Shown here: positions 1 through 27,075 of the stretch, piece after piece
Layout of the letters: every line of letters begins with the position of its first letter
Position numbering within the stretch: position 1 is the stretch's first letter
Source of the DNA: Candidatus Omnitrophota bacterium
Lineage (GTDB): Bacteria > Omnitrophota > Gorgyraeia > Gygaellales > Profunditerraquicolaceae
DNA: 64,000 nt
Direction: 5' to 3'
Assembly (NCBI GenBank): GCA_016208765.1
Contig: JACQXK010000032.1
Span: 118,385 to 182,384 of the forward strand
Notes under the pieces: model-generated
The model's database searches: none
Told to the model about the DNA's origin: nothing
The model's input: only the letters and a program-made list of their open reading frames with translations
Position numbers and translations under genes: made by a program

Positions 1-474
1 AAAAGGCATAGCCCCTGCTTTGGCAAAACAAGCTGCAGCAATCAATAAATACGCCGCCAAACCCAGGCCTGAAGAATTGCCTGTCAAAGAAATATTGATC
101 TCATCCATTTGAATTGAACCGGAGAGAAAATATAAAATACTTATTCCCAATAACATTAACGCATCAGTCCCGCCGACAATCACAAATGTTTTCTTAGCGG
201 CTAAATTCGCTCCTTCCCCCCCAAGGTTTACCAAAAGATACAAAGTTAAACCTAAAATCCCCCAGAAGAATAGCAACAACACAAGATTATTAGTCAAGAC
301 AGCGCCTATAGCGCAAATTGCGGTAATTACCATATAAAGGTAATATTGAACAAGCCCGCGCTTTGCCTGCATAAATTTGGAAGAATAAACAAGGGCTAAC
401 ACCGTAAAAAAACCAATCGCCAGGACTACAAATCCATTAAGGCTGTCTAATTTAAACAACTGGAAAAAGTTCAT
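1..474 (-). CDS. NuoL/MnhA(Mrp)-like antiporter-type membrane subunit of group-4 hydrogenase; 5' part only, 3' end beyond window edge
   Basis: Not in ORF track because it runs off the window. Rev-comp translation from ATG (474..472) reads MNFFQLFKLDSLNGFVVLAIGFFTVLALVYSSKFMQAK..., continuously hydrophobic and multi-TM. The ATG overlaps the TGA of the upstream large-subunit gene (ATGA). Confidence 0.5.
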   Translation of the reverse strand, partial: MNFFQLFKLDSLNGFVVLAIGFFTVLALVYSSKFMQAKRGLVQYYLYMVITAICAIGAVLTNNLVLLLFFWGILGLTLYLLVNLGGEGANLAAKKTFVIVGGTDALMLLGISILYFLSGSIQMDEINISLTGNSSGLGLAAYLLIAAACFAKAGAMPF

Positions 475-1667
475 TTTAATAAATTCTCTTTTATCTTATT
501 GGTTTTTTCCTGAGATAACTTGATCAAATCCCAACCATTGAGGATCTTCTTATTATCAGGTTTATTAATTACCGTCACTCTTTCTGTACAGCAATAGCAT
601 GGATCAACCGCAGCCAATGTAAGAGTGGCGTCAGAAATCGTCCCTCCTACTGCAGAAACCTTATCTGAGGCAACGTTCATAAAACTAGGCGCCCGTATTT
701 TGTGCCGTATCGGGCGGTTTGTTCCGTCGGACCTTATGTAATGAAAACATTCCCCGCGCGGCGCTTCAACCCTGCCAATACCTTCTCCGGCAGGAATATC
801 TTTTATGTCCGCGTCAATAGGGCCTTTTGGCATTTTATCCAAACACTGGCGTATAATACCTACACACTCGTATAACTCTAAAATTCTTACTACGGTCTTT
901 GCAAAAATATCACCTTCTTTTTCAATAATCACGTTCCAGTCTACCTTATCATATGCACCATATGGATCGTCTCTTCTAACGTCAATATTTAAACCTGAAG
1001 CCCTGGCAGTAGGCCCAACAACGCACCAATCAATAACTTGCTGCTTGGTTAAAACACCGACATCTTTAAGGCGCGCCTGAATTACCGGATCATCCATCAC
1101 AGCTCCCTTAAACATATCCACTGCCGGAACCAGTTCGTCTAAAGTTTTCTTAAGGATAGGAATATCTTCATCTTTAATATCTCTACGTACTCCGCCCACT
1201 TTAAACATGGCATAATTATTACGATTTCCGGTAATCATTTCAAACATATCCAGAATCGGCTCGCGATATTTCCAGGCCCACATCCAAACTGTATTATAAC
1301 CAATAAAATGCCCGGCAAGCCCCAACCAAAGAAGGTGGCTATGAATACGCTCCAACTCGTTAGTAATTGTTCTAATATATAGCGCACGCTCTGGCACCAC
1401 CAGAGACTCTCCTCCGAGAATATTCTCAACTGCCAAAACATATGCATAAGGATGGCTTGATGAACAAATACCGCAGATGCGCTCCACAAGAAAAGCTACC
1501 TGATCAAAATGCTTTGATTCAGATAATTTCTCTATCCCGCGGTGGTTATAACCGATAATAATATCAATATCAACGACCTTCTCCCCTTCAACATAAAGCT
1601 GAAAGAACTCTGGCTCTTCCTGCAAAGGATGATACGGGCCTATCGGGACAATTACTTTATGCGACAT
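471..1667 (-). CDS. [NiFe] hydrogenase large subunit, group 4 (NuoD/EchE/MbhL-like)
   Basis: N-terminal RICGICSSSH (RxCGxCxxxH Ni-Fe ligand motif) and C-terminal DPCYCCTER (DPCxxCxxR, the group-4 variant). Length about 398 aa. I chose the start at M14 (MSHKV..., ATG 1667..1665) because it sits 2 nt after the upstream gene's TAA with a purine-rich RBS; the track start at 1706 would overlap by 37 nt. Confidence 0.85.
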   Translation of the reverse strand: MSHKVIVPIGPYHPLQEEPEFFQLYVEGEKVVDIDIIIGYNHRGIEKLSESKHFDQVAFLVERICGICSSSHPYAYVLAVENILGGESLVVPERALYIRTITNELERIHSHLLWLGLAGHFIGYNTVWMWAWKYREPILDMFEMITGNRNNYAMFKVGGVRRDIKDEDIPILKKTLDELVPAVDMFKGAVMDDPVIQARLKDVGVLTKQQVIDWCVVGPTARASGLNIDVRRDDPYGAYDKVDWNVIIEKEGDIFAKTVVRILELYECVGIIRQCLDKMPKGPIDADIKDIPAGEGIGRVEAPRGECFHYIRSDGTNRPIRHKIRAPSFMNVASDKVSAVGGTISDATLTLAAVDPCYCCTERVTVINKPDNKKILNGWDLIKLSQEKTNKIKENLLK

Positions 1668-1669
1668 AT

Positions 1670-2095
1670 TTACTCTCTTCTTAAAGGATATTTGCCTTCC
1701 GGCCACTCATCAGCCAGCAATAGGCGTTTTAAATTTGGATGCCCGACGAACTTAATTCCCAGCATCTCCCACATCTCGCGCTCAATCCACTCAGCTCCGG
1801 GGAAAAGCGGGGTAATTGATTTCACCTGAGGGTCATTTTTATCCTGGATTAAAATCCTGACAGAAAACATTTCTCCTGTCTGATCAAAACTAAAATGATA
1901 AAGTATTTCAAGCCCCTGCAAAGTATCTACTCCGGAGGCCGTAGAAAACCTTAATCCCAAATCCTTAAATAAAAACCTGACCACTTCAAAAATATCTTCT
2001 GGTTTAACTGAAAAATAAATCCTTCTTACAGTCTTCTCTTCCCAGCTAACAATTTTTCCTGCAAGGCCTTCCTTTATCCTATCCTTTGTTTCCAT
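1670..2095 (-). CDS. NuoC/30-kDa-like hydrogenase subunit (EchD/MbhK-like)
   Basis: 141 aa with typical NuoC-family core (...FSFDQTGEMFSVRILI...ITPLFPGAEWIEREMWEMLGIKFVGHP). Sits between the small-subunit and large-subunit genes. Confidence 0.75.
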   Translation of the reverse strand: METKDRIKEGLAGKIVSWEEKTVRRIYFSVKPEDIFEVVRFLFKDLGLRFSTASGVDTLQGLEILYHFSFDQTGEMFSVRILIQDKNDPQVKSITPLFPGAEWIEREMWEMLGIKFVGHPNLKRLLLADEWPEGKYPLRRE

Positions 2096-2098
2096 AAG

Positions 2099-2524
2099 TT
2101 ATTTCTCCCCCCGGATTTTCTTTACCAATTTTACAATCCCGTCAATAATTGCCTCGGGCCTTGGCGGGCAGCCAGGAATATAGACATCAACAGGAAGGAT
2201 AGAATCAAGCGGGCCTTCAACATTGTAACTATCCTTAAACATGTGCTGAGAAAGCGCGCACTGGCCCACAGCCACGACCACACACGGCTTTGGGGCCTGC
2301 TCATAAATCTTTTTCATCTTTGGCACAGACTTTTTGTTCATTGCTCCGGTAATTAACAGCGCATCGGCATGGCGCACAGAACCAACCAACTGGATCCCAA
2401 ACCGCTCTAAATCAAAACGCGGAGTCAGGCAGTCAAGGATCTCAATATCGCAATTATTGCAGCTCCCTGCGCTAACATGAAAAACCCAGATTGATTTAGT
2501 TAAAGCCTTTAGTTTAAGGTTCAT
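2099..2524 (-). CDS. [NiFe] hydrogenase small subunit, group 4 (NuoB/EchC/MbhJ-like)
   Basis: 141 aa with Cys ligands for the proximal 4Fe-4S cluster (SAGSCNNC...C...GCPP) in NuoB-family spacing. Confidence 0.8.
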   Translation of the reverse strand: MNLKLKALTKSIWVFHVSAGSCNNCDIEILDCLTPRFDLERFGIQLVGSVRHADALLITGAMNKKSVPKMKKIYEQAPKPCVVVAVGQCALSQHMFKDSYNVEGPLDSILPVDVYIPGCPPRPEAIIDGIVKLVKKIRGEK

Positions 2525-3441
2525 TTTCCGAATATAGCCAGCACCACCGCGATTACCGACAGAACAGTTGGAACCCTCCAGAAAAACCTCATTGCCTGGT
2601 CAATGCGTAAGCGCGGGTTAGTGTTTTTAATCAAAATAATTATTACTAAAATCCCCACAAACTTTAAGATCACAAATAACGGGCTTAAGTCCCTTCCTAT
2701 AAATAAAATAATCACAAACAGGGGCATTGTATAAAGCATGACTGCCTTTGTCAATTTAAATAAGGCCAATCCTAATCCTGAATATTCAATTAAAGCCCCG
2801 CCCATAATCTCCTGTTCAGCTTCTGAGGCATCAAAAGGAACAAGCCCAAGTTTTGCCTGCATGCAAAAAATAATGGACACAAATGCCAAGAATCCTGAAA
2901 AAGAAAAAACGTTTGAACCAAAGAACAACTGATGGTTAATAACTTTTCCTAATTGGATTGCGCCGGAACTTTTGATGATCATCGCAATAACCGCTAAAAT
3001 AAAAGGCAGCTCATAAGCTAAAACCATCTTCATTTCACGCGATGCCCCTACCGAAGCCAGGGGGTTGCGCGACGCAGAAGCCCCTAAAATAATTGCCACA
3101 GCCGGCACAAGCAAAAGATACAGAACAACGATTAGATCAGAAGAAAAACTTTTATCAGGATTCAAAATACTCCAACCTAAAATTGCCGCCACTAAACTTG
3201 CGCTTAAAAAGCCTAAAAAAGGAGATAGTAAGAAGGTAAATTTACCGCCTTGAGGGAAAATTGTTTCTTTCCCTGATAATTTAATAATATCCGTAAAGTT
3301 CTGGTGCCACGGAGGGCCAACCCTCCACTGCAGGCGCGCAGAAACCTTCCTGTCTATCCATCCGGCCATTAATCCGGCAAAAACACTAAACAGCAACCCC
3401 GGAAAAACCAAATAGTTAAATACAGATTTAAGTATTTCCAT
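2521..3441 (-). CDS. NuoH-like membrane subunit (EchB/MbhM/HycD-like)
   Basis: Polytopic membrane protein with an RLQWRVGPPW-like motif of NuoH/HycD. Start moved to M26 (ATG 3441..3439) to give the usual 4-nt spacing after the ferredoxin stop (3445..3443); the track start at 3516 would overlap by 74 nt. Confidence 0.7.
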   Translation of the reverse strand: MEILKSVFNYLVFPGLLFSVFAGLMAGWIDRKVSARLQWRVGPPWHQNFTDIIKLSGKETIFPQGGKFTFLLSPFLGFLSASLVAAILGWSILNPDKSFSSDLIVVLYLLLVPAVAIILGASASRNPLASVGASREMKMVLAYELPFILAVIAMIIKSSGAIQLGKVINHQLFFGSNVFSFSGFLAFVSIIFCMQAKLGLVPFDASEAEQEIMGGALIEYSGLGLALFKLTKAVMLYTMPLFVIILFIGRDLSPLFVILKFVGILVIIILIKNTNPRLRIDQAMRFFWRVPTVLSVIAVVLAIFGK

Positions 3442-3442
3442 A

Positions 3443-3937
3443 TTATCTTTTCTTCGGCGGCTGAACATCCTCGCGAGACCACTTGATGCTATGTACCGCC
3501 AGATGCTCACCGACAAAATAAATATTCTTTTCTAAATCTTCGCTTACTTCTTTAACCTCTATTGCCTTCTCCGGGCAGCTAACTGCGCATTTGGGCAATT
3601 CTTTTCCAGCGCCAAGGCAATAATCGCACTTAGAATCAAGATACGGAATAAAATCCTGAAAGATAATCCCAAAGGGACAGGCAACTGTGCAGGATTTGCA
3701 ACTCGTGCAGCGCATTTTATAACGTTTTAGATGCCCGTCTGTTGCGCGCTCCAAAGCCTTATGATAGCAGGCATTGACGCAAGGAGCGTCTTCACAATGC
3801 CGGCAGATTGTGGCAAATGTTGCATACTCCCGCAAAGAAGAAATCCCATTATTCTGCGGGTGATAAAAATAATCACAGGCAACTTTACATTCTTCACAAC
3901 TATTGCATTTGTCTAAATCTATGAACAATCTTTTCAT
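3443..3937 (-). CDS. poly-ferredoxin (multiple 4Fe-4S clusters), electron-transfer subunit
   Basis: 164 aa with about 16 Cys arranged as repeated CxxCxxCxxxC(P) motifs (CNSCEECKVAC, CRHCEDAPCVNAC, CTSCKSCTVACP, CDYC...CAVSCP). Confidence 0.8.
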   Translation of the reverse strand: MKRLFIDLDKCNSCEECKVACDYFYHPQNNGISSLREYATFATICRHCEDAPCVNACYHKALERATDGHLKRYKMRCTSCKSCTVACPFGIIFQDFIPYLDSKCDYCLGAGKELPKCAVSCPEKAIEVKEVSEDLEKNIYFVGEHLAVHSIKWSREDVQPPKKR

Positions 3938-3974
3938 TTTTCGTTTATCGCTTTGGCTTTAAGTTTTTCGCTTT

Positions 3975-4793
3975 CTAATCCCAGATATCGTGATTATCCT
4001 TTAACTCTTCAAATGTAAACACCGGGCCGTCTTTACAGGCATAAAATTTACCAACCCTGCAATGCCCGCATTTACCCAAACCGCAAGACATGCTTTTTTC
4101 CATAGACAAATAAATATCCTTAGGCTTGAATCCCAATTCCAGCAACTTTAAAGTAACAAACTTCATCATAATTGGCGGGCCGCAAACCACTCCCACGGCC
4201 TTATTTAAATCTATAGACAAATCTTTTAAAATTGTAGTAACCAGCCCCACATTCCCCTGCCAGCTGGAATCCCCGACATCTACAGTAAACATGATATCCG
4301 TCTTCTTGTTCTTAGACCATGCCGGAACAAGATTTTTGTAAATAATATCGGCGGATGTTCTCGCCCCATAACGTAAAACTACTCTATTATAATTATCCAT
4401 GTCCCCAAATAAACTATACAGCAAAGAACGCAAGGGCGCCAATCCCACGCCTCCACCGACGATTAAAACATCCTTGCCCTTAAATTTATCCAGTGGATAC
4501 CCTTTGCCATAAGGCCCGCGAATCCCGAGAGAATCGCCTTTTTTTAAAGAATGCAATTTCTCTGTTACGCAACCGGCTTTAACAATAGTAACTTCAAATT
4601 TATCTTTAATTCCCGGGTCGGATGAAGGCGTAAAAGGCGCTTCCCCAATCCCAGGCACAGTTAATTCAACAAACTGCCCGGTACAAAAAGAAAATTCTTG
4701 TTTCGGCCGCAGCACAAAAGTCTTGATCAGGGCAGTTTCCTGAATAACGTCCTCAATTATTGCCTCAAACGGCTGATAAATATTTTTCTTCAT
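3975..4793 (-). CDS. FAD/NAD(P)-binding oxidoreductase with C-terminal 2Fe-2S (sulfhydrogenase gamma HydG / AsrB / PyrK-like)
   Basis: 272 aa with an FNR-like fold (GxxxE/T..P, LIVGGGVGLAPL NAD-binding loop) and a C-terminal CGLGKCGHC...C cluster motif typical of the PyrK/AsrB/HydG family. Confidence 0.75.
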   Translation of the reverse strand: MKKNIYQPFEAIIEDVIQETALIKTFVLRPKQEFSFCTGQFVELTVPGIGEAPFTPSSDPGIKDKFEVTIVKAGCVTEKLHSLKKGDSLGIRGPYGKGYPLDKFKGKDVLIVGGGVGLAPLRSLLYSLFGDMDNYNRVVLRYGARTSADIIYKNLVPAWSKNKKTDIMFTVDVGDSSWQGNVGLVTTILKDLSIDLNKAVGVVCGPPIMMKFVTLKLLELGFKPKDIYLSMEKSMSCGLGKCGHCRVGKFYACKDGPVFTFEELKDNHDIWD

Positions 4794-5859
4794 ATAATTT
4801 TCTCAAAATATAACGGATATCAATCTTTCCCGGACAAACATCAATACACCTACCGCACCCGCAGCAGCCTTGTATGCCTAAATTATCAACAAAAAAATCA
4901 AACTTTTTTAAATAACGGTTGCGTAAACGCATATAACGCATCTTTAAAGGATTCGCCCCTCCGGCTACCCGTGAGAAATTCTTAAACATACATCCATCCC
5001 AAAGCCGCAACCTCTTGGCATTATCACCTGCAGGCTCGTCTGAAAGTAAAAAACAATGGCAGGTATCGCACATGAACACGCACCCGCCGCATTCAACACA
5101 GGTCTGCATCTGTTCATCCCAGACCTTGGAATTCAATCCGGAAAGCACAATCTCCTTTAGGACATCTTTCTTGGGAATCTTGTGGCAGGAAAGATGCTCA
5201 TCCATTTTCTTGATTACATTTTCCCTTTTCGCCGCCCTGCCCGAGGTTTGCCCCAAGCCAGCCGCAACAAAAATGTCTTTTAAAGAATCCGTAATGCGCC
5301 TTGCTTTATCCGAGGCAACATCTACAAGAAAACCTCCGGTAAGCGGAGAAAGATTAAAATCAAAACCCTCAGAAGCGTGAGGATTAATATCAAATGCCCG
5401 GCAAAAACAGGCTTCCTTAAAATTAGGACAATCACTGGAAATAATCAGGGCGTTTGATCTTCTTTCCTGGTATAGAGGATCTATTTCATTACCACCTAAA
5501 AAAACAAAATCCTGGATTTTTAATGAAAAAATATCACAATTCTTAACTCCGCAGATAGCCGGAGGTTTTTCCTGATTGTTTTGCGGTTGGTCCTTAAAAT
5601 AAGTGCAGGTTTCTTCCTTTATATAGGTAAGAAATGTGCGGATTGGCTCAATGCAACGGTAATCGTTATAAACTATATCTTCTTTATTTACTTCTGAAAA
5701 CTTCCTGAGGGCATAGTCATCGCTGGGCAGATTAAACCCGTAATCACATTTAATGCGGGAAGATGTTTCTACTCTCACAGGCACAAAGAGCTCGTATTCT
5801 TGTGCTATACGGTTGTAGAATTTAAAGACATCCTCGTCTTTTAGAAAATACGTTTCCAT
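4765..5859 (-). CDS. Fe-S subunit of the sulfhydrogenase beta (HydB) / anaerobic sulfite reductase AsrA family
   Basis: 364 aa with many Cys, including CVECGGCVFMCDTCHC and CCGCGRCIDVCP ferredoxin-like motifs. Size and Cys pattern match HydB/AsrA-type proteins that pair with the gamma/AsrB subunit; it is the first gene of the operon. Confidence 0.6.
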   Translation of the reverse strand: METYFLKDEDVFKFYNRIAQEYELFVPVRVETSSRIKCDYGFNLPSDDYALRKFSEVNKEDIVYNDYRCIEPIRTFLTYIKEETCTYFKDQPQNNQEKPPAICGVKNCDIFSLKIQDFVFLGGNEIDPLYQERRSNALIISSDCPNFKEACFCRAFDINPHASEGFDFNLSPLTGGFLVDVASDKARRITDSLKDIFVAAGLGQTSGRAAKRENVIKKMDEHLSCHKIPKKDVLKEIVLSGLNSKVWDEQMQTCVECGGCVFMCDTCHCFLLSDEPAGDNAKRLRLWDGCMFKNFSRVAGGANPLKMRYMRLRNRYLKKFDFFVDNLGIQGCCGCGRCIDVCPGKIDIRYILRKLYEEKYLSAV

Positions 5860-5934
5860 GCAGCAAAAACCTATATTTAGAGATTTTAGGAATGAAAATT
5901 ACAAAGACTGCTCGGCAATCTTTAAGAAGCTATT

Positions 5935-5964
5935 AAAATACCACACAAAAAAACAATTGTCTAC
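5935..5964 (-). promoter_or_regulatory. candidate sigma70-type promoter for the hydrogenase operon
   Basis: On the minus strand, TAGACA-N18-TATTTT lies about 75-105 nt upstream of the ATG at 5859. The -35 is a weak match. Confidence 0.2.
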
Positions 5965-11163: not shown

Positions 11164-12954
11164 CTACCATTCAAATTTTAATCCCGATTGGATCCAGCGC
11201 CCGGGCTGCAAAACTCCGGAAATCTCAGTATATTTCGCATTGCTGAAGTTGTCAATCTTTACAAACGGCTCAAAGATATAATCCCGGTAGTGGATTTTTT
11301 TGCCTAAATATAAGTTACCCACAAAATAAGTTTCCCCATAATACCTCTGGTTATAAGATAACTGAAAATTAGCCTCCAGCCCTAAAAAACCGGAGAAAAT
11401 CTCCAAAAGATACCGGTGTTTAAGAATATCCAGTGCATATTTTGAAAGAAAACCCCCTGTATTTTTATCTGCCAACATATAGTTATATGAAAAAGCGGCT
11501 TTATCAAATGAGGCATATTTAAATTTCAAATTTGTCTTTAGCTTTGATTTAAACTCAACTCCCCAGAAATCCACCTTGCCTAAATTTGTTGCCTGCCAGG
11601 GGTCAGCTGTGGTTGCGCGCGTCCAATCAATCAAATTATGCCCTTTGCGCAAGAATCCATCAAGCCCAAGTTCAAGGATATTCTGAGCATAATCAAAGCC
11701 TATCCTAAAATTATCAGATTTCTCCGGTTTTAATTCAGGATTTCCCTTATTTGCCGCATCAGAATAATAAAGTTCCGTAAAAGTGGGTATCCTGAAGGAA
11801 TGGCCAAATGAACCGTTAACTTTTAACCGCTCTTTGATCAGATCATACCCTAAGCCTGCGCTATATGTCTCTTCGTCTCCCCATTGCTGATAATTATCAG
11901 CGCGAAAACGCAGATCCGCAGTAAACTTGTCTCCAAGCTTAGGAACTATTCCAAATGAGCCTGCCTGATGAAAACGAGAGTGTTTTCCTAAATTAGTAGA
12001 ATTAATCTGATCCTCTGCGATATTTACTCCAAAAACAAAATCTGCTAAACGCGCAGGAATTTCCAACTCTGAATCAATGCCGGAAAGATACGTTGTGTGA
12101 TAATTTACAGAAGTAGGATTATTTCTTCTTAAAATAAACTTGTCGCGGTGTTTCCTGAAAAATAAATTATCCTTAAGCTTGCCAAGGGAAAAATCTGAGG
12201 TATGCCCAAGTTTTGTAAAAACTGTTTCAGTATGCTCTTCTTCTTCCGGAAATAAATTAGAATAAAAACTATCTGCTCCAAAATCTTTCTTCTGATAACC
12301 AAACAAGGCATTGATATTTGTCTGGGCGAGGTCTTTATCTATGTAAAAAGAAGCTGTTTTATATTCAAAATCTGTGTTTGGGCGCGCAGCCTTTGCAATT
12401 TTGTGGTCAAATGAGACGCGCGTAGAAAAACTCTCCTGCGGCAGGCTTAAAGAAAATGACTGTCCGAATAAAGCATGCTCGCCGAAAAGCGTATCAATAT
12501 TTAATGATTTCTTAACAGGTTTCTTAACGATAAAATTTACGCTCCCTGCAAAGGCACCGTTTCCATAAAGAGACCCCACCCCGGTCTTATCAATTTCTAT
12601 TTTTTCCAAATCATACTGAGTAAGAGGAATATCCAAATTATGATGGCCGGTCTGAGGGTCATTAACATTTACCCCATCTATCAAGATTCCCACCTGCTCA
12701 TAGGTAGAGCCGTTTAAAGAAAGATCAGATTGAATACCAAATGGGCCGCGGTTACGTAAATCAACCCCTGCCACCCTATCAAGCACTTCAACCGGAGAAT
12801 TAACATTTTCTTTGCGTATTTGAGATCCGCTAAGGCTCTCAAAAGAATAATTAACAGGCCTGATCACAATATCATCAAGCTTGTATTTATCTTCTGCCCC
12901 CGCTAAAGAAAAGACTGCAAAGATTATTAAAATAACAGAAATAATTATTTTCAT
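11164..12954 (-). CDS. TonB-dependent outer-membrane receptor (short, BtuB-like size)
   Basis: N-terminal signal peptide; plug-domain motifs (DDIVIR...VLDRVAGV, NGS...ILIDGV), a beta-strand-rich body and an aromatic C-terminal residue (...KFEW). 596 aa. Confidence 0.8.
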   Translation of the reverse strand: MKIIISVILIIFAVFSLAGAEDKYKLDDIVIRPVNYSFESLSGSQIRKENVNSPVEVLDRVAGVDLRNRGPFGIQSDLSLNGSTYEQVGILIDGVNVNDPQTGHHNLDIPLTQYDLEKIEIDKTGVGSLYGNGAFAGSVNFIVKKPVKKSLNIDTLFGEHALFGQSFSLSLPQESFSTRVSFDHKIAKAARPNTDFEYKTASFYIDKDLAQTNINALFGYQKKDFGADSFYSNLFPEEEEHTETVFTKLGHTSDFSLGKLKDNLFFRKHRDKFILRRNNPTSVNYHTTYLSGIDSELEIPARLADFVFGVNIAEDQINSTNLGKHSRFHQAGSFGIVPKLGDKFTADLRFRADNYQQWGDEETYSAGLGYDLIKERLKVNGSFGHSFRIPTFTELYYSDAANKGNPELKPEKSDNFRIGFDYAQNILELGLDGFLRKGHNLIDWTRATTADPWQATNLGKVDFWGVEFKSKLKTNLKFKYASFDKAAFSYNYMLADKNTGGFLSKYALDILKHRYLLEIFSGFLGLEANFQLSYNQRYYGETYFVGNLYLGKKIHYRDYIFEPFVKIDNFSNAKYTEISGVLQPGRWIQSGLKFEW

Positions 12955-14875: not shown

Positions 14876-15283
14876 TCAAAAACGCACTTCCATCGCTCTC
14901 GTCGGGCAGATCCTTACGCACAACTCGCAGGCAATACACTTTTTATCATGGAAAATTATTTTGCGGGATTCCTGGTCAACCGTCAAAGCGCCGGCAGGAC
15001 AAATCGGAACACACACTCCGCAATGGGTGCATTTTTCTTCATTGCGAATAACATCCTGGCTCAAAGGCTGGATCTTGACACCGCAGGAGTTTAAATATTC
15101 AATCCCTTTGTCAAAATTCTCCTTTTTACCGGTAAGTTCAAGGACCATCAAGCCCTCTTCCTGCGGAGTAACAGAGGCTTTAAGGATGTTGAATTTTAAA
15201 TCAAATTCCTTGACCAGTTTATAAACAATCGGCTGATCCACCAAGCGATGAGGAAAATGTAAAACTATTCGTTTGGAAGTCAT
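14876..15283 (-). CDS. NIL-domain / 2x[4Fe-4S] ferredoxin fusion protein (homocysteine-synthesis partner, MA1822-like)
   Basis: 135 aa. The N-terminal half resembles the MetN C-terminal NIL domain. The C-terminal half has CTHCGVCVPICP and CIACELCVRICP ferredoxin motifs. It sits next to the DUF39 gene. Confidence 0.7.
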   Translation of the reverse strand: MTSKRIVLHFPHRLVDQPIVYKLVKEFDLKFNILKASVTPQEEGLMVLELTGKKENFDKGIEYLNSCGVKIQPLSQDVIRNEEKCTHCGVCVPICPAGALTVDQESRKIIFHDKKCIACELCVRICPTRAMEVRF

Positions 15284-15293
15284 ATATCTCTCC

Positions 15294-16499
15294 TTAGCTT
15301 AACGATGGATTTTGTTTTAAAGGCTTAAATGCATACCCGGATTCAGCTCCCGGGATGTTTGCCACCGGCTCGCTCAAAGTAAAATCGCCTTTTTTGATCC
15401 ATGACTTAAGTGTTTCTGCGATTTCGCGCGCTTTGGAATAACTGGATAAATTACCCGTCGGTATTTCTTTATTCTGCACAACGATCTTACCTGTCTTAAG
15501 CTGCGCATAACTCACCTGAGCAAGCGAGCCTGGAATACAATTAGGATAATTGTTGCTATAATCAATTACCTGCGTAAATATTTCCTCATCTCTTGCTGCG
15601 GCATATTTAACAACATCTTCATCTAAAACAGGTATCGGCACGCCGATCCCGACAATCATGGTTACCCCATAACCAACCATACTTGTCCCCACCAGCCACT
15701 CCGGCTTCATTTGCTTTAAATCCCCGATGACTGCCAATGTGCCTGCAGGGACCTTTGGAATGCCATTATCAGACCTTGGCACACCGGGGTTATGCTGAGT
15801 GCCGTGCCAGGCGACAAAACCAATGCCTCCTCCAAGGAATATCTTTGTTCCCACACCTATGGTTTTATAGCAGGGGTCTTTTAAAAGCGGAGAAAGCTGT
15901 CCTGCCGAGCAATAATTAGCATTGCCTAAATTCGGCTTCAATACACCCATATAGGTATAGACCATTTTATCCGACAAGTTAACAGCCACATTATAATTCT
16001 GATAGCAGTTGCGTATATTAAATAAAACTGCTTCATTTAGGTCTTTAAGATTAATTGCAGTTTCTAATTTTTTTAAAGGATAACAATCCGTGCCATAAGC
16101 CGTTGCCTCCAAAGATACATTTTTGCCTTCCAAAAGTTCATGAATAACATGCCCTCCGCCATATTTAAATTCACCCGGATAAACCTTGTTACGCGGGTCA
16201 TCGTCGGGGATAGCAGTTGCACCCAGAAAAATATCAACCGCAGCAAGCCCTGTATAGGCAGGGACATCGTTTAGCTTACACACTCCTCCGCCTAATTTAA
16301 TTCGCGGCTTGGAGTGGCCAATATTAAAATAAGCGCCTGATGAACACATCGGGCCGAAAGTGCCGGTAGTAACCACATCTACTTCCTGCGCAACCTTCTT
16401 TAAGCCTTTTTTCTCAACCAAATCAGCCACTTCCTCAGCGGTAACAACCACTGCCTCGCCCTTCCTGATCTTTTCATTGATTTCTTTTATTGTCTTCAT
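15294..16499 (-). CDS. DUF39/COG1900 family protein (sulfide-dependent homocysteine biosynthesis, MA1821-like)
   Basis: 401 aa. Length, the conserved TGTFGPMCSSGA block and pairing with a NIL-ferredoxin gene match the COG1900 homocysteine-synthesis family. Confidence 0.6.
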   Translation of the reverse strand: MKTIKEINEKIRKGEAVVVTAEEVADLVEKKGLKKVAQEVDVVTTGTFGPMCSSGAYFNIGHSKPRIKLGGGVCKLNDVPAYTGLAAVDIFLGATAIPDDDPRNKVYPGEFKYGGGHVIHELLEGKNVSLEATAYGTDCYPLKKLETAINLKDLNEAVLFNIRNCYQNYNVAVNLSDKMVYTYMGVLKPNLGNANYCSAGQLSPLLKDPCYKTIGVGTKIFLGGGIGFVAWHGTQHNPGVPRSDNGIPKVPAGTLAVIGDLKQMKPEWLVGTSMVGYGVTMIVGIGVPIPVLDEDVVKYAAARDEEIFTQVIDYSNNYPNCIPGSLAQVSYAQLKTGKIVVQNKEIPTGNLSSYSKAREIAETLKSWIKKGDFTLSEPVANIPGAESGYAFKPLKQNPSLS

Positions 16500-16510
16500 T
16501 GTGCTTGCCC

Positions 16511-16732
16511 CTAAACAGAGATAACCTCTTTTACCTCTGGAACTTCTTGTTTAAGTATTCTCTCAATCCCCATCTTTAATGTCATCTGGCTCATCGGGCA
16601 GCATCCACAAGCGCCCTTTAATTTTAATTTTACTACACCATCTGCGCTTACCTCTACTAATTCCACATTTCCACCGTCTGCCATAAGCATCGGCCTGATT
16701 TTTTCTAACGCCTTTTCTACTTTATCTTTCAT
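16511..16732 (-). CDS. NifU-like (Nfu) Fe-S cluster carrier domain protein
   Basis: 73 aa with a GACGCCPMS motif (CxxC of the NifU C-terminal domain). Confidence 0.7.
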
Positions 16733-16745
16733 AACTCTCTCCTTG

Positions 16746-17675
16746 TTATTTATACAATATCGTGCTTAAATATCTTTCTCCTGAATCAGGCAATATTACC
16801 ACAATAAGTTTTCCTTTATTTTCTTTTCTCTGTGCTATCTTTAAAGCTGCCCAAGCCGCGGCTCCGGAAGAAATACCGCACAAAATACCTTCCTGGCGAG
16901 CAAGTTTATTAGCAACCTGAACTGCATCTTCATCTGAAACAGCAATTACCTCATCAAGAATATCCCTATTTAAAACTTCAGGTATAAAACCTGCGCCTAT
17001 TCCCTGGATCATGTGCGGCCCGGGTTTTCCTCCGGACAAAACTGCAGAAGCTAAAGGCTCAACCGCAAATACTTGAAGCTTTGGGTTCTTCTTTTTTAAC
17101 ACTTCTGCAACCCCTGTTATTGTACCGCCGGTTCCCACGCCTGCAATCAAGATGTCAATCTTTCCGTCGGTATCACGCCAAATCTCAAGGGCAGTAGTCA
17201 GGCGATGCGCCTGCGGATTAGCTGGATTCTTAAATTGCTGCGGCAGGAAACATCTTTCACTGCTCTTTGCCAACTCTTCAGCTTTTTTAACCGCTCCATT
17301 CATACCCTCTTTTCCTGGAGTAAGCACAATTTCCGCACCAAAAGCAGATAACAGCTGCCTGCGCTCAATACTCATTGTATCCGGCATAGTTAAAACCAGC
17401 TTGTAGCCTTTCACTGCGCAAACAAAAGCCAAAGCAATCCCGGTATTCCCCGAGGTTGGTTCAATGATAATGGTATCAGGAGTAATTTTGCCTTCTTTTT
17501 CAGCCTGTTCAATCATGCTTAAACCAATACGATCCTTTAACGAAGAACAAGGATTAAAAGATTCCAATTTTGCCACAATTTCAGCGCTGCATCCTTGGGC
17601 AATCTTATTAAGGCGCACTAAAGGCGTGTTTCCAATCAACTCTGTAATATCTTTTGCGATTTTCATTTTATGCAC
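16746..17675 (-). CDS. cysK: cysteine synthase (O-acetylserine sulfhydrylase)
   Basis: GNTPLVRL, the PLP-binding Lys region (SSLKDR), [12 protein letters not shown] and GTGGT motifs. 309 aa. Confidence 0.85.
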
Positions 17676-19355: not shown

Positions 19356-20318
19356 TCAAGCCTTAAAATCTTTAATTATTTCTCCGAGCATTTCTTCAAG
19401 CCCCACTTTAGGAATATAGCCTGTATATTTCTTTATCTTAGACAAATCAGGGATCCTGCGCTGCATATCCTCAAAGCCATCCCCATAGGCATCCTTATAA
19501 GAAATATAATGAATTACAGATTTACTATTGGTAAGTTTCTTGATTTTGTGCGCGAGTTCCTCAACGCTGATCTCTTCATCGTTGCCAATATTAAAAACCT
19601 CGCCAAAACATTTAGAAGTTTCTAATAATTTAATTATCCCATTTACAATATCCCCGACATAGGAAAAGCACCTTCTCTGTTTTCCATCGCCGTAGATTGT
19701 AATCGGCTGGTTTAAAATAGCCTGTTTAATAAAACGCGGCACCACCATCCCGTATTCTCCGGTTTGACGCGGGCCGCAGGTGTTAAAAAATCTCGTAATT
19801 ACAACCGGGATTTTATGCTCTTTAAAATACGCAAATGCCAAAAACTCATCAAGTTTTTTTGTGCAGGCATAGCTCCAGCGGTAAAGCTTGGTGTAGCCGA
19901 TTATGCTATCATCCTCTTCTTTAAAGGGGACCTTATTATTTTTTCCGTAAACCTCAGAAGTTGAAGCAATCAAAACCGGCGTATTAGACCTGCTTGCCTC
20001 TTCAAGAATAATTTCTGTGCCGCGCACATTTGTAGTGATGGATTTTAAAGGATTATCAATAATATATTTAACTCCCACAGCAGCAGCCAAATGATAAACG
20101 CAATCAACATCTTTAATCAGGCGCGACATCAGTTTTTCATTCATGATACTTTCAAGATGAAACTTAAAATGCTCATGATGCTTAAGATGCGCGATATTAT
20201 CAAGCTTTCCGGTGGACAGGTCATCCACAGCTACTACGCTGTTATTTTGCGAAAGCAGCTTATCTGCAAGATGCGACCCAATAAAACCCGCTCCTCCGGT
20301 AATCAATACTTTCTTCAC
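19356..20318 (-). CDS. NAD-dependent sugar-nucleotide epimerase/dehydratase, UDP-glucuronate decarboxylase (UXS/ArnA-C)-like
   Basis: N-terminal ITGGAGFIGSHL Rossmann motif, a YxxxK catalytic pair (SYACTKK) and a GDGKQRRCFSYVGD block resembling the UXS/ArnA decarboxylase subfamily. 320 aa. Confidence 0.7.
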   Translation of the reverse strand: MKKVLITGGAGFIGSHLADKLLSQNNSVVAVDDLSTGKLDNIAHLKHHEHFKFHLESIMNEKLMSRLIKDVDCVYHLAAAVGVKYIIDNPLKSITTNVRGTEIILEEASRSNTPVLIASTSEVYGKNNKVPFKEEDDSIIGYTKLYRWSYACTKKLDEFLAFAYFKEHKIPVVITRFFNTCGPRQTGEYGMVVPRFIKQAILNQPITIYGDGKQRRCFSYVGDIVNGIIKLLETSKCFGEVFNIGNDEEISVEELAHKIKKLTNSKSVIHYISYKDAYGDGFEDMQRRIPDLSKIKKYTGYIPKVGLEEMLGEIIKDFKA

Positions 20319-20320
20319 TT

Positions 20321-21358
20321 TTATTTCCTTTGTTTTGCCATATGATGCTGGCGCATTTTTACTTGATGTAATTTCCAGATACCCCAGATAAAAAATAAAA
20401 TAAAACCGGATGATACCAATATAGCGCTCTTTATTCCGTCTTTAGGTATTGAAATTGCGATACAAACCAGGACAAAATTAATAATATAAATAAACATCAC
20501 TGTTTCCCTCTGGCTCAGGCCCATGTGTGTAAGTCTATGCGATAAATGATCTGTATCCGCGTGTTCAAGCCACTGCCTGAACGTGCGTACCTTTCCTTCA
20601 GCTATCCTTAAAACAGTGATCATGGATGTATCAAAAATCATCACCCCGAGCATTAAGACAGGGATTGTTACGGCGATTAACTTACTTTCCGACCAAGAAG
20701 CCATTATTGCCATAGATGAAATAACAAATCCAAGAAACGTACTTCCGGAATCTCCCATAAATACTTTAGCAGGATTAAAATTATAGCGTAAAAATCCCAA
20801 AGTACTACCTAATAAACTAATGCTCAGAAAAACCAGCCACCTCTGGCCGGTTTTATAAGCAATTGCAGCTATACCGAAACAACAGATTGCCGCAATTCCC
20901 CCGGCAAGACCGTCCATATTGTCTAAGAAATTCAAAGCATTAGTAATACCGACGATACCGGCAACAGTAAAGAATACATTAGCAGCATCCCAAGGAAAAA
21001 CTTTAATTACTACGCCATGCGCTACCACCACAATACATGCCACCAACTGAAAAAAAAGCCTTAACGACGCGCGTAAATGCCGCATATCATCAATCACGCC
21101 AATAAACATAATAATGCTTGCGCCTATCAATATCCCGCGCAGCTGAGTATTATAATCAAAACTGGAAAGCGTTCCGATGACAAACGCCATATACATTGCC
21201 ATGCCTCCTAATTTAGGCATTGGCTGTTTATGAATTTTGCGGCTCTTAGGATGGTCCAAAATATCAAATTTAAAAGCAAGCCTCATACATAAAGGCACCA
21301 GAAACAATGAAGCGATTAAGGAAATAATTGCTACTCTTATATATTGGCTGACAATCAT
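20321..21358 (-). CDS. polyprenyl-phosphate HexNAc-1-phosphate transferase (WecA/MraY family), initiating transferase
   Basis: About 10 TM segments and an ITNALNFLDNMDGLAGG motif (NxxNxxDGxDGL of the MraY/WecA family). 345 aa. Confidence 0.8.
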   Translation of the reverse strand: MIVSQYIRVAIISLIASLFLVPLCMRLAFKFDILDHPKSRKIHKQPMPKLGGMAMYMAFVIGTLSSFDYNTQLRGILIGASIIMFIGVIDDMRHLRASLRLFFQLVACIVVVAHGVVIKVFPWDAANVFFTVAGIVGITNALNFLDNMDGLAGGIAAICCFGIAAIAYKTGQRWLVFLSISLLGSTLGFLRYNFNPAKVFMGDSGSTFLGFVISSMAIMASWSESKLIAVTIPVLMLGVMIFDTSMITVLRIAEGKVRTFRQWLEHADTDHLSHRLTHMGLSQRETVMFIYIINFVLVCIAISIPKDGIKSAILVSSGFILFFIWGIWKLHQVKMRQHHMAKQRK

Positions 21359-21361
21359 CGG

Positions 21362-22411
21362 TTAATCTACTATCGCCTTAAGCGTTTTAGTAATAATATG
21401 CCTGGCCTTTTGGCTACTTAACTCTGGATATATGGGCAAAGAAATGGTGTTTTTAAAAACTTCATTGGTAGAAGGGAAATCACTGCTTTTAAATCTTAGA
21501 TATTGATGCAAGGGCCTAAAAACCGGCTTCTTTGCTTCAATGCCTGACTTTTGCAATTTTTCAACTAAAACATCAGCGCTATTCTTGCTTCTTATAACAT
21601 AACGAAAATAAACATGCTCTTTATTCTGGACAGGTAAAGGTAAAATCAACCCAGAATCAGCGAAAGATTTATTATACATCTTGGCAATCCTTTGTCTACG
21701 GGAAATAAACTCAGGGATTTTCTTTAACTGCTCTAAGCCCATTGCCGCAGCCAGATCATTCATTTTGTAATTAAAACGCAGGTGATAATCAGGCTTATTA
21801 TCATAATCTTTTAAATCTCTGACAAAATCAGAAACCTTTTTGTCGTTGGTAAGGATCATCCCGCCTTCTGCAGTCGTAAGCATTTTTGTAGCATAGAAAG
21901 AAAATACAGAGATCACGCCAAAACTTCCTATATTTTGCCCCTTATAAGTTGCTCCCACTGCCATGGCACAATCCTCAATAACCGGTACGCCAAGCTTTAG
22001 CAATTCTCTTAAATCTGCAGCCAGTCCGAACATATGCGGCACGATTATCGCCTTAGTTTTATTAGTAAGCGCTTCTTTTACTGCAAAACGGCAAATATTA
22101 AAAGACTCCGGGTCAATATCCACAATCTTTACTGTTGCACCGGTATAATTAACGGCATTTAAAACCGCAGTACAAACATAACTGGGGATGATTACTTCAT
22201 CTCCTTTTCTTATTTTTAATGCCAATAAAGCAAGGTGCAAACCTGATGTGCCTGAATTAACCGCTGTTGCAAAACGCATACCGATAAAATCAGCTAACCC
22301 CTGTTCAAACTTACCAGTTAACTTACCCTCGGCAATAAAACCGCTTTTTAAAACAGAATTCAGGAATTTTATTTCCCTAAAATTAATGGATGGTTTTGAG
22401 TGTGGGATCAT
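21362..22411 (-). CDS. DegT/DnrJ/EryC1/StrS-family PLP-dependent sugar aminotransferase (ArnB-like)
   Basis: 349 aa with typical N-terminal blocks (VNSGTSGLHLAL..., ...DIDPE...) and a Lys-containing SFYATK region. Confidence 0.8.
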   Translation of the reverse strand: MIPHSKPSINFREIKFLNSVLKSGFIAEGKLTGKFEQGLADFIGMRFATAVNSGTSGLHLALLALKIRKGDEVIIPSYVCTAVLNAVNYTGATVKIVDIDPESFNICRFAVKEALTNKTKAIIVPHMFGLAADLRELLKLGVPVIEDCAMAVGATYKGQNIGSFGVISVFSFYATKMLTTAEGGMILTNDKKVSDFVRDLKDYDNKPDYHLRFNYKMNDLAAAMGLEQLKKIPEFISRRQRIAKMYNKSFADSGLILPLPVQNKEHVYFRYVIRSKNSADVLVEKLQKSGIEAKKPVFRPLHQYLRFKSSDFPSTNEVFKNTISLPIYPELSSQKARHIITKTLKAIVD

Positions 22412-23093
22412 TCTTTAAAATAATTTCTAAGGATTTCGGCCCATAATTAAACAATAAATCAGCAATTGCCAAATCCGGAACAAAACCCGCTTTCATATAT
22501 TGCTGTTTGTATTCAGGGCAATGCCAATCTTGCAAAGAAACTTTTATACCTGCATCATTAAATACTTTTTCATCAAGATAAACTTCCAAAGCATACGCAC
22601 CGGACAGATATGTATCAGCGCCTAATTCTTTGCAAATATTCACCAAACGAAGCGATTCTATTCCGGGAACGCTTAATTCAGAAGACTTGACTATCTTTTG
22701 CTTAAGGCCCAGGCATTCAAGATAGAAAAAAAACATTTCATAATTAATATCATTTAAATTCTCCCAGTCTTTTTGATAAATATTCTCAAAAAAACTCTTA
22801 TATTCCTTAAAATAGGGAGCCTTGCTGTAATTAAAGCACAAAGAATTCCAGTGCTTTTTGCGCCAATTTTGTGAATTATCAATTTTAACTTCGTTAATAT
22901 TCTGCTGAAACTTATTATAAACCGGGACAGTTAAATATGACCAACCCTGGGCAGTTTTAATTTTATTGCGATTCTGCCAGCCGTTTTTATTAAACTGAAT
23001 ATCATCCATGACTACAAATATATCTGAATGATAAATTTTATGAAAATAACGCAACCAGGGAAAGTAATGCAGCTGGTGAGCAGAAAGAATCAT
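22383..23093 (-). CDS. WbqC-like family protein
   Basis: 236 aa. The N-terminal MILSAHQLHYFPWLRYFHKI matches the conserved (Q/H)P.YFPW..YF start of the WbqC family (PF08889) found in O-antigen clusters. Confidence 0.55.
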   Translation of the reverse strand: MILSAHQLHYFPWLRYFHKIYHSDIFVVMDDIQFNKNGWQNRNKIKTAQGWSYLTVPVYNKFQQNINEVKIDNSQNWRKKHWNSLCFNYSKAPYFKEYKSFFENIYQKDWENLNDINYEMFFFYLECLGLKQKIVKSSELSVPGIESLRLVNICKELGADTYLSGAYALEVYLDEKVFNDAGIKVSLQDWHCPEYKQQYMKAGFVPDLAIADLLFNYGPKSLEIILKNDPTLKTIH

Positions 23094-23096
23094 TTC

Positions 23097-23816
23097 TTAA
23101 ACTACAAACCTGTGGCACATAAATGCCTCTGCAGCCTCTACTGAAATTTCACGGCCGCGCACCTTGGCAAGGTTCTCAATATTCTCAAGGCTGGCATGAT
23201 GAATTGAAGGCTTCATCTGTGACTTATGAAATGACACAGCTTTTAATTTTTTATCAAGATATTTAGAAATATCCACATAAAAAGTAGGATGAAATTTCTC
23301 ACGCTCAAGGCTCCAGGAGATTGCCGGATTATCACAGGATAAAACAATTTTCTGAAATGGCTTAACATCCGGTAAATGCGGCCTGCAAGCGGTAAAGCCG
23401 GCACGAAATACAGCTTCATGATCCTGGTTATATGAGGCTGCCGGTAAAATCATCATTGTCGGCTTAATCCGGTCAATAGACAGCTTGCATTCTCTTTCAA
23501 AACAATTTACCAGGTCCTTGCGCGGGATGGCATCTAAACGTAAATGCACTTTTGTATCATTAAAAACAACTTCATAGTCATCAACTTTTAAATATTTCAT
23601 TGCCCCTTCAAATTCTTCATTACGGGTATTTCCATTAACAACCATATCATTGCTTTTTGGCCCGTAATGCACAACCTCTCCCACAGAAACTACAATCACA
23701 TAAACTTCAGCCCCAAGGTCTTTCATCTTGGCAATTGTCCCGCCGCAACCAAAGACCTCGTCATCAGCATGCGGAGCCAAAACCAAACATTTTTGTTTCT
23801 TTAAGAATGCATCCAT
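23097..23816 (-). CDS. PIG-L/LmbE-family N-deacetylase
   Basis: LVLAPHADDEVFGCGGT (HxDDE...GCGG zinc-site signature) and an HxDH region (NQDHEAV). 239 aa. GGAGGA RBS 5 nt upstream. Confidence 0.8.
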   Translation of the reverse strand: MDAFLKKQKCLVLAPHADDEVFGCGGTIAKMKDLGAEVYVIVVSVGEVVHYGPKSNDMVVNGNTRNEEFEGAMKYLKVDDYEVVFNDTKVHLRLDAIPRKDLVNCFERECKLSIDRIKPTMMILPAASYNQDHEAVFRAGFTACRPHLPDVKPFQKIVLSCDNPAISWSLEREKFHPTFYVDISKYLDKKLKAVSFHKSQMKPSIHHASLENIENLAKVRGREISVEAAEAFMCHRFVV

Positions 23817-23850
23817 ATTATTAATCCTCCACTGTAATTAATTGTCGGCT

Positions 23851-23932
23851 GACGTCATTGCGAGCCCGAAGGGCGAAGCAATCTCTGTTTTAGGATTGCT
23901 TCGTCGCGCTTCGCGCTCCTCGCAATGACGAT
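23851..23932. repeat. 82-bp composite palindromic (REP-like) element overlapping the 3' end of the 668-aa CDS
   Basis: GTCATTGCGAG-(X)-GAAGCAATC / loop TCTGTTTTAG / GATTGCTTC-(X')-CTCGCAATGAC. The X and X' bulges each form a small GC hairpin with GAA/TTC loops (GCCC-gaa-GGGC and GCGC-ttc-GCGC). The stop codon of the upstream gene (23892..23890) lies in the central loop. Confidence 0.6.
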
Positions 23933-27062: not shown

Positions 27063-27075
27063 AATATACTATTTG

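Follow-up and report, generated by a model that had tools for sequence, protein, structure and literature searches.

A conserved Omnitrophota operon encoding a group-4 [NiFe] hydrogenase with a sulfhydrogenase-like flavin/iron-sulfur pair and a putative link to NAD(P)H

The first 5859 positions of a 64,000-nucleotide (nt) stretch of a Candidatus Omnitrophota genome (contig JACQXK010000032.1 of assembly GCA_016208765.1; the whole stretch is referred to below as the window) carry eight head-to-tail genes on the minus strand, whose identities agree across Pfam, NCBIfam and comparison with structures in the Protein Data Bank (PDB). We conclude that these genes make up the promoter-proximal half of a single long operon, which encodes a modular membrane [NiFe] hydrogenase of complex-I-like build. 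Judging from homology, our best reading, which we hold to be somewhat more probable than all others together, is that the complex is a reversible NAD(P)H-linked, Mrp-coupled hydrogenase serving redox balancing, of the type that has been called 'Mbh-Mrp-oxidoreductase'. A preliminary description of the window had assigned the same genes in the same minus-strand order, and all eight were found by Pfam, NCBIfam and PDB comparison where it had placed them. From the head of the operon, they are the following:

4765..5859, minus strand: AsrA / sulfhydrogenase-beta-like iron-sulfur subunit, 364 residues, first gene of the operon (Pfam Fer4_22, 1e-27)
3975..4793, minus strand: AsrB / sulfhydrogenase-gamma-like FAD-, NAD(P)- and [2Fe-2S]-binding subunit, 272 residues (Pfam FAD_binding_6, NAD_binding_1 and DHODB_Fe-S_bind)
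3443..3937, minus strand: HycB/HydN/CooF-like ferredoxin, 164 residues, with 16 cysteines in four cluster motifs (Pfam Fer4_11)
2521..3468, minus strand: NuoH/MbhM-like membrane subunit, 315 residues, as called on the identical Logan contig L001 (Pfam NADHdh, 2e-61)
2099..2524, minus strand: NuoB/MbhJ-like small subunit, 141 residues (Pfam Oxidored_q6, 2e-30)
1670..2095, minus strand: NuoC/MbhK-like subunit, 141 residues (Pfam Complex1_30kDa, 6e-30)
471..1667, minus strand: group-4 [NiFe] large subunit, 398 residues (Pfam Complex1_49kDa and NiFeSe_Hases)
1..474, minus strand: antiporter-like subunit of the NuoL/MrpD/MbhH type, first 158 residues, the rest being cut off by the window edge (NCBIfam NuoL, MrpA and MrpD matches)

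With a single exception, adjacent genes overlap by 4–29 nt or lie 1–3 nt apart. The AsrA-like and AsrB-like genes overlap by 29 nt and the ferredoxin and NuoH-like genes by 26 nt, the latter junction becoming a 1-nt gap if the NuoH-like protein starts at the alternative ATG at position 3441, which would give 306 residues. ATGA overlaps join the NuoH-like to the NuoB-like gene and the large-subunit gene to the antiporter-like gene, and gaps of 3 and 2 nt separate the NuoB-like from the NuoC-like gene and the NuoC-like gene from that of the large subunit. The exception is an A-rich gap of 37 nt between the AsrB-like stop codon and the ferredoxin start. A GTG start at position 1706 probably makes the large subunit too long, the ATG giving 398 residues; the exact ATG-start protein, and not the GTG-start form, is present in an NCBI Omnitrophica metagenome-assembled genome (MAG) and in two short Logan contigs.

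The large subunit carries both Ni-Fe ligand motifs intact, RICGICSSSH (L1) and DPCYCCTER (L2), followed by a C-terminal extension after the second. Its best solved match is MbhL (6cfw_L, 6e-87) and its second is HycE (7z0s_E, 5e-77). The alignment with MbhL spans the full length of the protein, and its four Ni-Fe cysteines align with Cys68, Cys71, Cys374 and Cys377 of MbhL. Residues forming the environment of the MbhL active site have been listed (PMC11228991); MbhL Glu21, His75, Ser110, Arg320, His325 and Asp372 are also conserved in the window protein, and Lys24 and Glu343 are not. Since the active-site residues are kept, the window protein looks like a real hydrogenase and not like an Mbx/Ehr-type relative that lacks the metal site. 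The NuoB-like subunit has the four cysteines for one [4Fe-4S] cluster (SCNNC, GQC, GCPP) and scores 143 bits against the NCBIfam NuoB subfamily, above the cut-off of 116. The features of group 4 are thus present: a NuoD-like large subunit with both CxxC ligand motifs and, in the window, NuoB-, NuoC-, NuoH- and antiporter-like partners, a NuoI-like partner being expected for this genome from its relatives.

Both proteins encoded at the head of the operon resemble the beta and gamma subunits of soluble hydrogenase I (SHI, also termed sulfhydrogenase 1) of Pyrococcus furiosus. The AsrA-like protein matches ShyB (2e-42), HydB (5e-40) and AsrA (1.5e-32) in NCBIfam, all under the curated cut-offs, and its nearest solved relative is SHI-beta (9nez_B, 2e-33), with the cysteine motifs aligned. 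The AsrB-like protein matches AsrB (6e-67), HydG (2e-53) and also ShyC, and is nearest to SHI-gamma (9nez_C, 8e-53). Its GGGVGLAPLRS and CGLGKCGHC...C sequences align with the glycine-rich NAD(P) motif and the cysteine motif of SHI-gamma, as does an arginine after the second strand of the NAD(P) domain. The domains of a sulfhydrogenase pair are therefore all present, namely FNR-type FAD, NAD(P) and C-terminal [2Fe-2S] domains in gamma and a multi-cluster Fer4_22 domain in beta, with one predicted flavin site, on the gamma-like subunit. The pair does not belong to the sulfhydrogenases proper, given that its partner is a group-4 core and that its NCBIfam scores are 137–181 bits against cut-offs of 600–750. 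The ferredoxin matches HydN in NCBIfam (6.5e-15) and, among solved structures, HycB4 of the hydrogen-dependent CO2 reductase HDCR (7qv7_B, 6e-13) and HycB of formate hydrogenlyase (7z0s_B, 2e-12), and is presumed to carry electrons from one to the other of the beta/gamma pair and the hydrogenase arm.

On contig L001 the operon can be followed past position 1 of the window, where the large subunit is succeeded by a 547-residue antiporter-like protein (Proton_antipo_M), by MbhD/MbhE-like, MnhB-like and NuoK/MnhC-like (Oxidored_q2) proteins and by another antiporter-like protein (Proton_antipo_M). Where related loci extend further, the operon continues with MnhE, MnhF and MnhG and ends in a 200-residue two-cluster protein matching HycF, NdhI, TYKY and MbhN. 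This NuoI-like subunit is not encoded among the window genes; in 50 related loci and in Kosmotoga its gene lies at the operon end, and the same distal position is expected for it in this genome. An Mrp-type module is thus encoded together with the hydrogenase core (on L001 and, as regards MnhE, MnhF and MnhG, in relatives), and the complex belongs to the Mrp-linked kind.

Conservation was assessed by a scan of one genome per species, in which relatives of the large subunit were found at 474 places; the layout counts refer to the best 80 of these 474. The 80 are 79–96% identical, nearly all labelled Omnitrophota, and all are loci of the Omnitrophota type. The seven genes from the AsrA-like gene through the large subunit keep the same order and strand in every locus with enough upstream DNA (60 of 60); the other 20 loci end at a contig edge, and counterexamples number zero. 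A protein-database search with the large subunit returned only Omnitrophota proteins, all at least 82% identical. Among Omnitrophota the enzyme seems to be very widespread. The upstream neighbours, which are housekeeping genes (MnmA, NadA, RluA, UppP, a PfkB-type kinase and YqeY), are conserved too. Several MAGs labelled 'uncultured Planctomycetales' or 'Patescibacteria group' (L005, L012, L016, L022, L025 and others) have large subunits 83–88% identical to that of the window and the Omnitrophota gene order; their taxonomic labels are probably wrong.

Downstream of the large subunit three variants occur: a full Mrp set, a single antiporter-like gene followed by the NuoI-like gene, and a form with ∼2.2 kb of extra genes after the large subunit. 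A short operon form without the Mrp module was seen in L013, L021, L023, L024, L026, L036, L041, L045 and L047. In 53 related loci a gene for a PhoU-domain protein (205 residues; L007, positions 11199–11816) separates the first antiporter-like gene from that of the large subunit. The genome of the window lacks this gene, its large-subunit and antiporter-like genes overlapping by ATGA. The AsrA-like proteins of the related loci fall into two classes, ∼64–72% and ∼39–47% identical to that of the window, with the large subunit staying at 79% or above.

Relatives outside the phylum were sought in a library clustered at 50% identity, where the nearest two clusters are only 59% identical and all others at most 49%. 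One of the two is Kosmotoga, including the cultured K. olearia TBF 19.5.1 (locus L083), whose operon Kole_0555-0574 corresponds to that of the window gene for gene, the subunits being 34–58% identical, and has HycI, HypF, HypC and HypD genes 3' of the NuoI-like gene. The other (L085) shares this layout except that a gene for a molybdopterin-type protein has been inserted after the AsrB-like gene and before that of the ferredoxin; at 535 residues (L085, 3534–5141) and with a weak Molydop_binding match, the insert resembles the degenerate formate dehydrogenase (Fdh)-like subunit described in PMC13582414. Loci L086 (46%) and L092 (45%) also begin with the AsrA-like, AsrB-like and ferredoxin trio, L086 being without any antiporter-like gene and L092 having a Rex gene first. 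Five further relatives at 42–49% identity have other gene orders and no trio. In a neighbour-joining tree of 131 sequences, calculated without bootstraps or other support values, the carriers of the beta/gamma pair form one clade, apart from Pyrococcus MbhL (group 4d) and Escherichia coli HycE (group 4a), and the five trio-less relatives fall outside it. All four of the other lineages examined in the clade (Kosmotoga, L085, L086 and L092) carry the trio. Next to the hydrogenase clade stands an Ehr/Mbx-like derivative, L093 (3698–4816), which resembles the window layout in its order of ferredoxin, NuoH-, NuoB-, NuoC- and NuoD-like, Mrp and NuoI-like genes and whose NuoD-like protein retains only one of the four Ni-Fe cysteines (GSSC at the ligand positions).

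These comparisons bear on several points of the preliminary description. It had regarded a beta/gamma pair on a group-4 core as unusual, a view that is weakened for this lineage, as the clade members examined all carry the pair and the layout is already in print. It had named, as what would speak against it, a well-described subgroup that routinely carries HydB/HydG-like genes; the subgroup does carry them routinely but is not biochemically well described. In the neighbourhood comparison that it had suggested, beta/gamma homologues co-occur with the group-4 core in the 60 informative Omnitrophota loci and the four other lineages. Of the genes that it had suggested looking for past position 1, further Mrp-type genes are present on L001, and maturation genes follow the operon in Kosmotoga.

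The head of the operon was scanned for signals, and two were found upstream of the AsrA-like gene:

5935..5963, minus strand: promoter-like site TAGACA-17 nt-TATTTT, including an upstream TG, within the 112 nt that separate the yqeY-like gene from the AsrA-like gene
5902..5924, minus strand: imperfect palindrome or hairpin TAAAGATTGCCGAGCAGTCTTTG, with a T-rich run after it, scored as terminator-like, between the promoter-like site and the AsrA-like start

A matching TAGACAA ... TGTGnTAnnnT layout precedes the AsrA-like gene in relatives, L005, L007, L017 and L053 among them. In K. olearia, Kole_0568-0575 form one transcription unit as predicted from start and stop sites in RNA-sequencing data (PMC5674127, Table S2), which runs from one small gene at the upstream end through the genes for the AsrA-like, FAD/NAD(P)-binding, ferredoxin and NuoH-, NuoB- and NuoC-like proteins to that for the large subunit. 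Between positions 3937 and 3975 the scan predicted neither terminator-like nor promoter-like sites. The conserved gene order in itself argues for one transcript. A separate beta/gamma unit is very unlikely because the Kosmotoga homologues share one published unit and because both order and promoter are conserved; the single operon proposed in the preliminary description is upheld by these observations together with the clean 3937–3975 gap.

In many relatives the position of the palindrome at 5902–5924 is occupied by an apparent operator for Rex, a regulator that responds to the ratio of NADH to NAD+ and acts as a repressor of hydrogenase operons in Caldicellulosiruptor (PMC6391272). The motif TGTGA-N6-TCACA, which fits the Rex consensus TTGTGAANNNNTTCACAA given there, has 22 exact matches in 1.2 Mb of related loci, against one or two expected by chance on a rough estimate, and all 22 lie 19–76 nt upstream of an AsrA-like start. 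Counting sites with up to one mismatch, 20 of 54 Omnitrophota loci and Kosmotoga have a Rex site at this distance, that of K. olearia being TTGTGAATTTTATCACAA, 32 nt before the AsrA-like gene; additional loci have variant sites with shorter spacers or one or two changes. Exact boxes occur mostly in loci of the low-identity AsrA-like class. Seven Omnitrophota loci have an upstream Rex gene (Put_DNA-bind_N and CoA_binding), and in L092 one stands immediately upstream. The putative Rex-type operator at the operon head thus spans two phyla. In the window itself, the palindrome could be a leader hairpin or the site of another regulator.

Rex control in the relatives would bring about expression when NADH accumulates, in line with a venting of reductant. 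On pyruvate, the K. olearia operon genes are expressed at 30–204 reads per kilobase per million mapped reads, compared with ∼1900–2600 for the Fe-only hydrogenase (data of PMC5674127). This low expression fits Rex repression when glycolytic NADH is absent, and it fits a venting role because, as we infer, pyruvate fermentation bypasses glycolytic NADH.

In the mechanism that we favour, NAD(P)H would reduce the FAD on the AsrB/SHI-gamma-like subunit, and electrons would pass by way of the gamma-like [2Fe-2S] cluster to the clusters of the AsrA/SHI-beta-like subunit. They would then travel through the four clusters of the HycB/CooF-like ferredoxin to those of the NuoI-like subunit (encoded past the window edge) and the NuoB-like subunit, and protons would be reduced to H2 at the [NiFe] site. 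Coupling to the movement of H+ or Na+ would fall to the NuoH-like subunit and the Mrp-type module. Such an enzyme would most likely act as a reversible redox valve, surplus NAD(P)H being vented as H2 when partner organisms keep H2 low or when the ion gradient pays for it, and the reverse reaction, from H2 to NAD(P)H, could pump ions.

The membrane-bound, ion-coupled NAD(P)H:H+ oxidoreductase put forward in the preliminary description is thus retained as the most economical reading, although a number of points weigh against it. Donor, direction and ion coupling are all deduced from homology, and 'NAD(P)H' stands here for either NADH or NADPH. The reduction of protons by NAD(P)H is endergonic under standard conditions and uphill at high H2, so that the forward reaction would need either low H2 or an input from the ion gradient, and pumping in that direction would be confined to low H2. 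The NuoI-like subunit is the entry point of ferredoxin in Mbh, so ferredoxin could be the main donor here too. The Mrp module, or any antiporter-like gene, is missing in some relatives, which implies that ion coupling is not uniform and may differ within the clade. Rex also controls the ferredoxin-dependent Ech of Caldicellulosiruptor (PMC6391272), and a Rex box is hence no proof of an NADH substrate. In the window, moreover, no Rex site with up to two mismatches was found near the operon and no Rex gene in the 64 kb, and Hyp or HycI signature motifs were likewise not found within the 64 kb.

The main rival, which we consider unlikely, takes ferredoxin as the principal donor. The complex would be a ferredoxin-driven Mbh-type hydrogenase with the beta/gamma pair as a side branch, electrons entering from ferredoxin at the NuoI-like or HycB-like subunit and leaving to H2 or NAD(P)+; in variants of this reading, it would be an ion-translocating ferredoxin:NAD(P)+ oxidoreductase combined with a hydrogenase, or would merge electrons from ferredoxin and NAD(P)H to make H2. 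The closest solved relative of the large subunit is indeed the ferredoxin-dependent Pyrococcus MbhL, the NuoI/MbhN-like subunit is retained in full operons, and K. olearia is reported to be without a bifurcating [FeFe] hydrogenase (bioRxiv 10.1101/322537). On the basis of AlphaFold models of related group-4b clusters, a branched iron-sulfur network with bifurcation or confurcation has been proposed (PMC13582414). That published three-way branch, however, involved a degenerate Fdh-like subunit. The window has no Fdh-like molybdopterin gene, and none was found among the 42 Omnitrophota loci whose contigs include the 5 kb preceding the AsrA-like gene, when these 5 kb were searched. With the gamma-like subunit as the only predicted flavin-binding subunit, no bifurcating centre is evident, and flavin-based bifurcation is ranked lower for this reason. 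The flavin site of SHI-gamma is not known to be a bifurcating site. Without such a centre, electrons from ferredoxin would run downhill to NAD(P)+, uncoupled.

Less probable again is an uptake enzyme in which oxidation of H2 reduces NAD(P)+ and the modest drop in energy drives ion pumping, so that cells would gain reductant as well as ion-motive force in lithotrophic or acetogenic growth. As established thermodynamics has it, electron flow from H2 to NAD(P)+ is exergonic under standard conditions and is the easy direction for pumping. Regulation argues otherwise: Rex lets go of DNA at high NADH, and an operon under its control would be induced when NAD(P)+ reduction is least needed. In Elusimicrobia, 'Mbh-Mrp-oxidoreductase' clusters occur in lineages predicted to be acetogens (bioRxiv 10.1101/765248), and the soluble homologue SHI is called a reversible NADPH-oxidising hydrogenase in the title of a study cited in PMC13582414 (Xiao et al. 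2025). Against this, K. olearia is an H2-producing fermenter (PMC5674127), and Omnitrophota with Mrp-linked group-4 enzymes have been read as fermenters disposing of reductant (PMC8542988).

A role in sulfur chemistry seems to us very improbable. Here the complex would exchange electrons of H2 or NAD(P)H with sulfite, polysulfide or elemental sulfur by way of the AsrA/AsrB-like pair, after the manner of anaerobic sulfite reductase or of the side activity by which sulfhydrogenase reduces sulfur. Such a role is suggested by AsrB being the best NCBIfam match of the gamma-like protein (6e-67), by the AsrA match of the beta-like protein and by the first description of SHI as a sulfhydrogenase, as referenced in PMC8542988. 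Yet the scores against AsrA, AsrB, HydB and HydG are all below the curated equivalog cut-offs, no gene for AsrC (the siroheme subunit) is present in the window operon or in the gene tables of Kosmotoga L083 and of L007, and the pair is fixed beside a hydrogenase core with intact Ni-Fe ligands. Membership of the AsrABC sulfite reductases was rejected on the missing AsrC gene and the low AsrA and AsrB scores. The last alternative, that the beta/gamma genes are mere neighbours with a transcript of their own and an unrelated partner, has the 37-nt gap in its favour but is close to refuted by the lack of any predicted terminator-like or promoter-like site in that gap, by the invariant order in the 60 informative Omnitrophota loci and four other lineages, and by the single predicted transcription unit of the K. 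olearia homologues.

Elsewhere in the window, positions 19356–39111, and probably a longer stretch, hold a long minus-strand run of surface polysaccharide biosynthesis genes, whose products include an epimerase/dehydratase, GT4 and GT2 glycosyltransferases, a DegT aminotransferase, WbqC, PIG-L, a fusion of a formyltransferase with a glycosyltransferase, deacetylases, methyltransferases, a MurJ-like flippase, Wzy_C and asparagine synthase. The stretch 14885–17675 encodes an HcyBio (PF01837) homocysteine-biosynthesis enzyme at 15294–16499 and a PALP enzyme at 16746–17675, with a weak ferredoxin-like match at ∼14885–15043, just downstream of the HcyBio gene; the sulfur-incorporation route of HcyBio is better known from methanogens. 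All 43 open reading frames of at least 150 residues between 11164 and 63976 are on the minus strand, as are all genes of the hydrogenase operon, which suggests a very strong strand bias in the window. The GC skew is negative across the first 14 kb.

Gene arrangements of this kind are already known from genomes described between 2019 and 2026. Saganbacteria encode an 'enigmatic' group-4 enzyme (RX5A-E) with asrA-, asrB- and cooF-like genes and Mrp-like subunits, whose closest relatives were reported in Zixibacteria and Omnitrophica (Matheus Carnevali 2019, PMC6349859). The Elusimicrobia version was named the 'Mbh-Mrp-oxidoreductase type', its function being stated as unknown (Meheust 2020, bioRxiv 10.1101/765248), and group-4b clusters have SHI-beta/gamma homologues alongside degenerate Fdh subunits (PMC13582414, 2026). 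Mrp-linked group-4 hydrogenases of Omnitrophota have been called 4g and read as ferredoxin-dependent (PMC8542988). The 'Mbh-Mrp-oxidoreductase' clusters have the same trio of AsrA-, AsrB- and CooF/HycB-like genes before NuoH, NuoB, NuoC and the large subunit, and then Mrp-type genes. The Saganbacteria and group-4b versions, like L085, differ from the window in including a molybdopterin Fdh-like subunit, often degenerate. Since these clusters are known from genomes, the likeness says nothing firm on function. What is new here is the scale of conservation in Omnitrophota, a gene-for-gene cultured orthologue with transcript evidence, and a Rex operator at the operon head in two phyla.

Of the biochemically studied complexes, Mbh of P. 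furiosus (group 4d, 6CFW) shares the NuoB/C/D/H/I-like core and the Mrp-type module. Mbh is fed by ferredoxin, its sole donor, and has no dehydrogenase module, flavoprotein or HycB-like subunit, whereas FAD/NAD(P)-binding, Fer4_22 and HycB-like subunits are conserved here. In the mbhA-N operon the Mrp-like genes precede the hydrogenase genes, while on L001 they follow them. The beta, gamma, small, large gene order of SHI (group 3b, 9NEZ) is echoed in the window operon, but SHI is cytoplasmic with group-3 delta and alpha subunits, and the window enzyme has a group-4 complex-I-like core, a HycB-like ferredoxin and membrane subunits. The operon is not a member of the Pyrococcus-type Mbh, the sulfhydrogenases or AsrABC.

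A parallel in logic is formate hydrogenlyase (E. coli Hyc, group 4a, 7Z0S), in which HycB joins formate dehydrogenase to HycF, HycG and HycE, electrons passing from a soluble module to a HycB/CooF-type protein, a HycF/NuoI-type protein, a NuoB-like subunit and the [NiFe] site. Thermococcus has complexes built on the same modular plan, which are Mrp-linked and depend on CO or formate (HydDB group 4b). The difference lies in the input module, a flavin- and NAD(P)-binding pair here as against formate or CO dehydrogenase in the Hyc and Thermococcus complexes. To our knowledge, ferredoxin, formate or CO is the electron source of every energy-converting hydrogenase characterised biochemically. If the operon encodes a membrane hydrogenase with a direct connection to NAD(P)H, this would fill a gap in anaerobic bioenergetics, namely how fermenters without bifurcating hydrogenases shed NADH, and the apparent orthologue in the cultured K. 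olearia makes the question directly testable.

Respiratory complex I likewise has an NAD(P)H-oxidising flavoprotein module on a homologous membrane core. Its NuoE/F/G module is unrelated to the FNR/PyrK-type FAD protein and beta partner found here, and it has a quinone pocket at the acceptor site where the window enzyme keeps the Ni-Fe cysteines. If the NAD(P)H-linked reading is correct, the operon would represent a natural parallel to the acquisition of an NADH module by complex I. We propose tentatively, and with less than even confidence, that the SHI-beta/gamma pair and its HycB wire, in place of NuoEFG, constitute a second, independent NAD(P)H dehydrogenase on a complex-I-like core, forming an NAD(P)H-dependent respiratory hydrogenase with which Omnitrophota and Kosmotoga might vent glycolytic NAD(P)H as H2 in H2-scavenged niches, in exchange with an Na+ or H+ gradient and, in many lineages, under the control of Rex.

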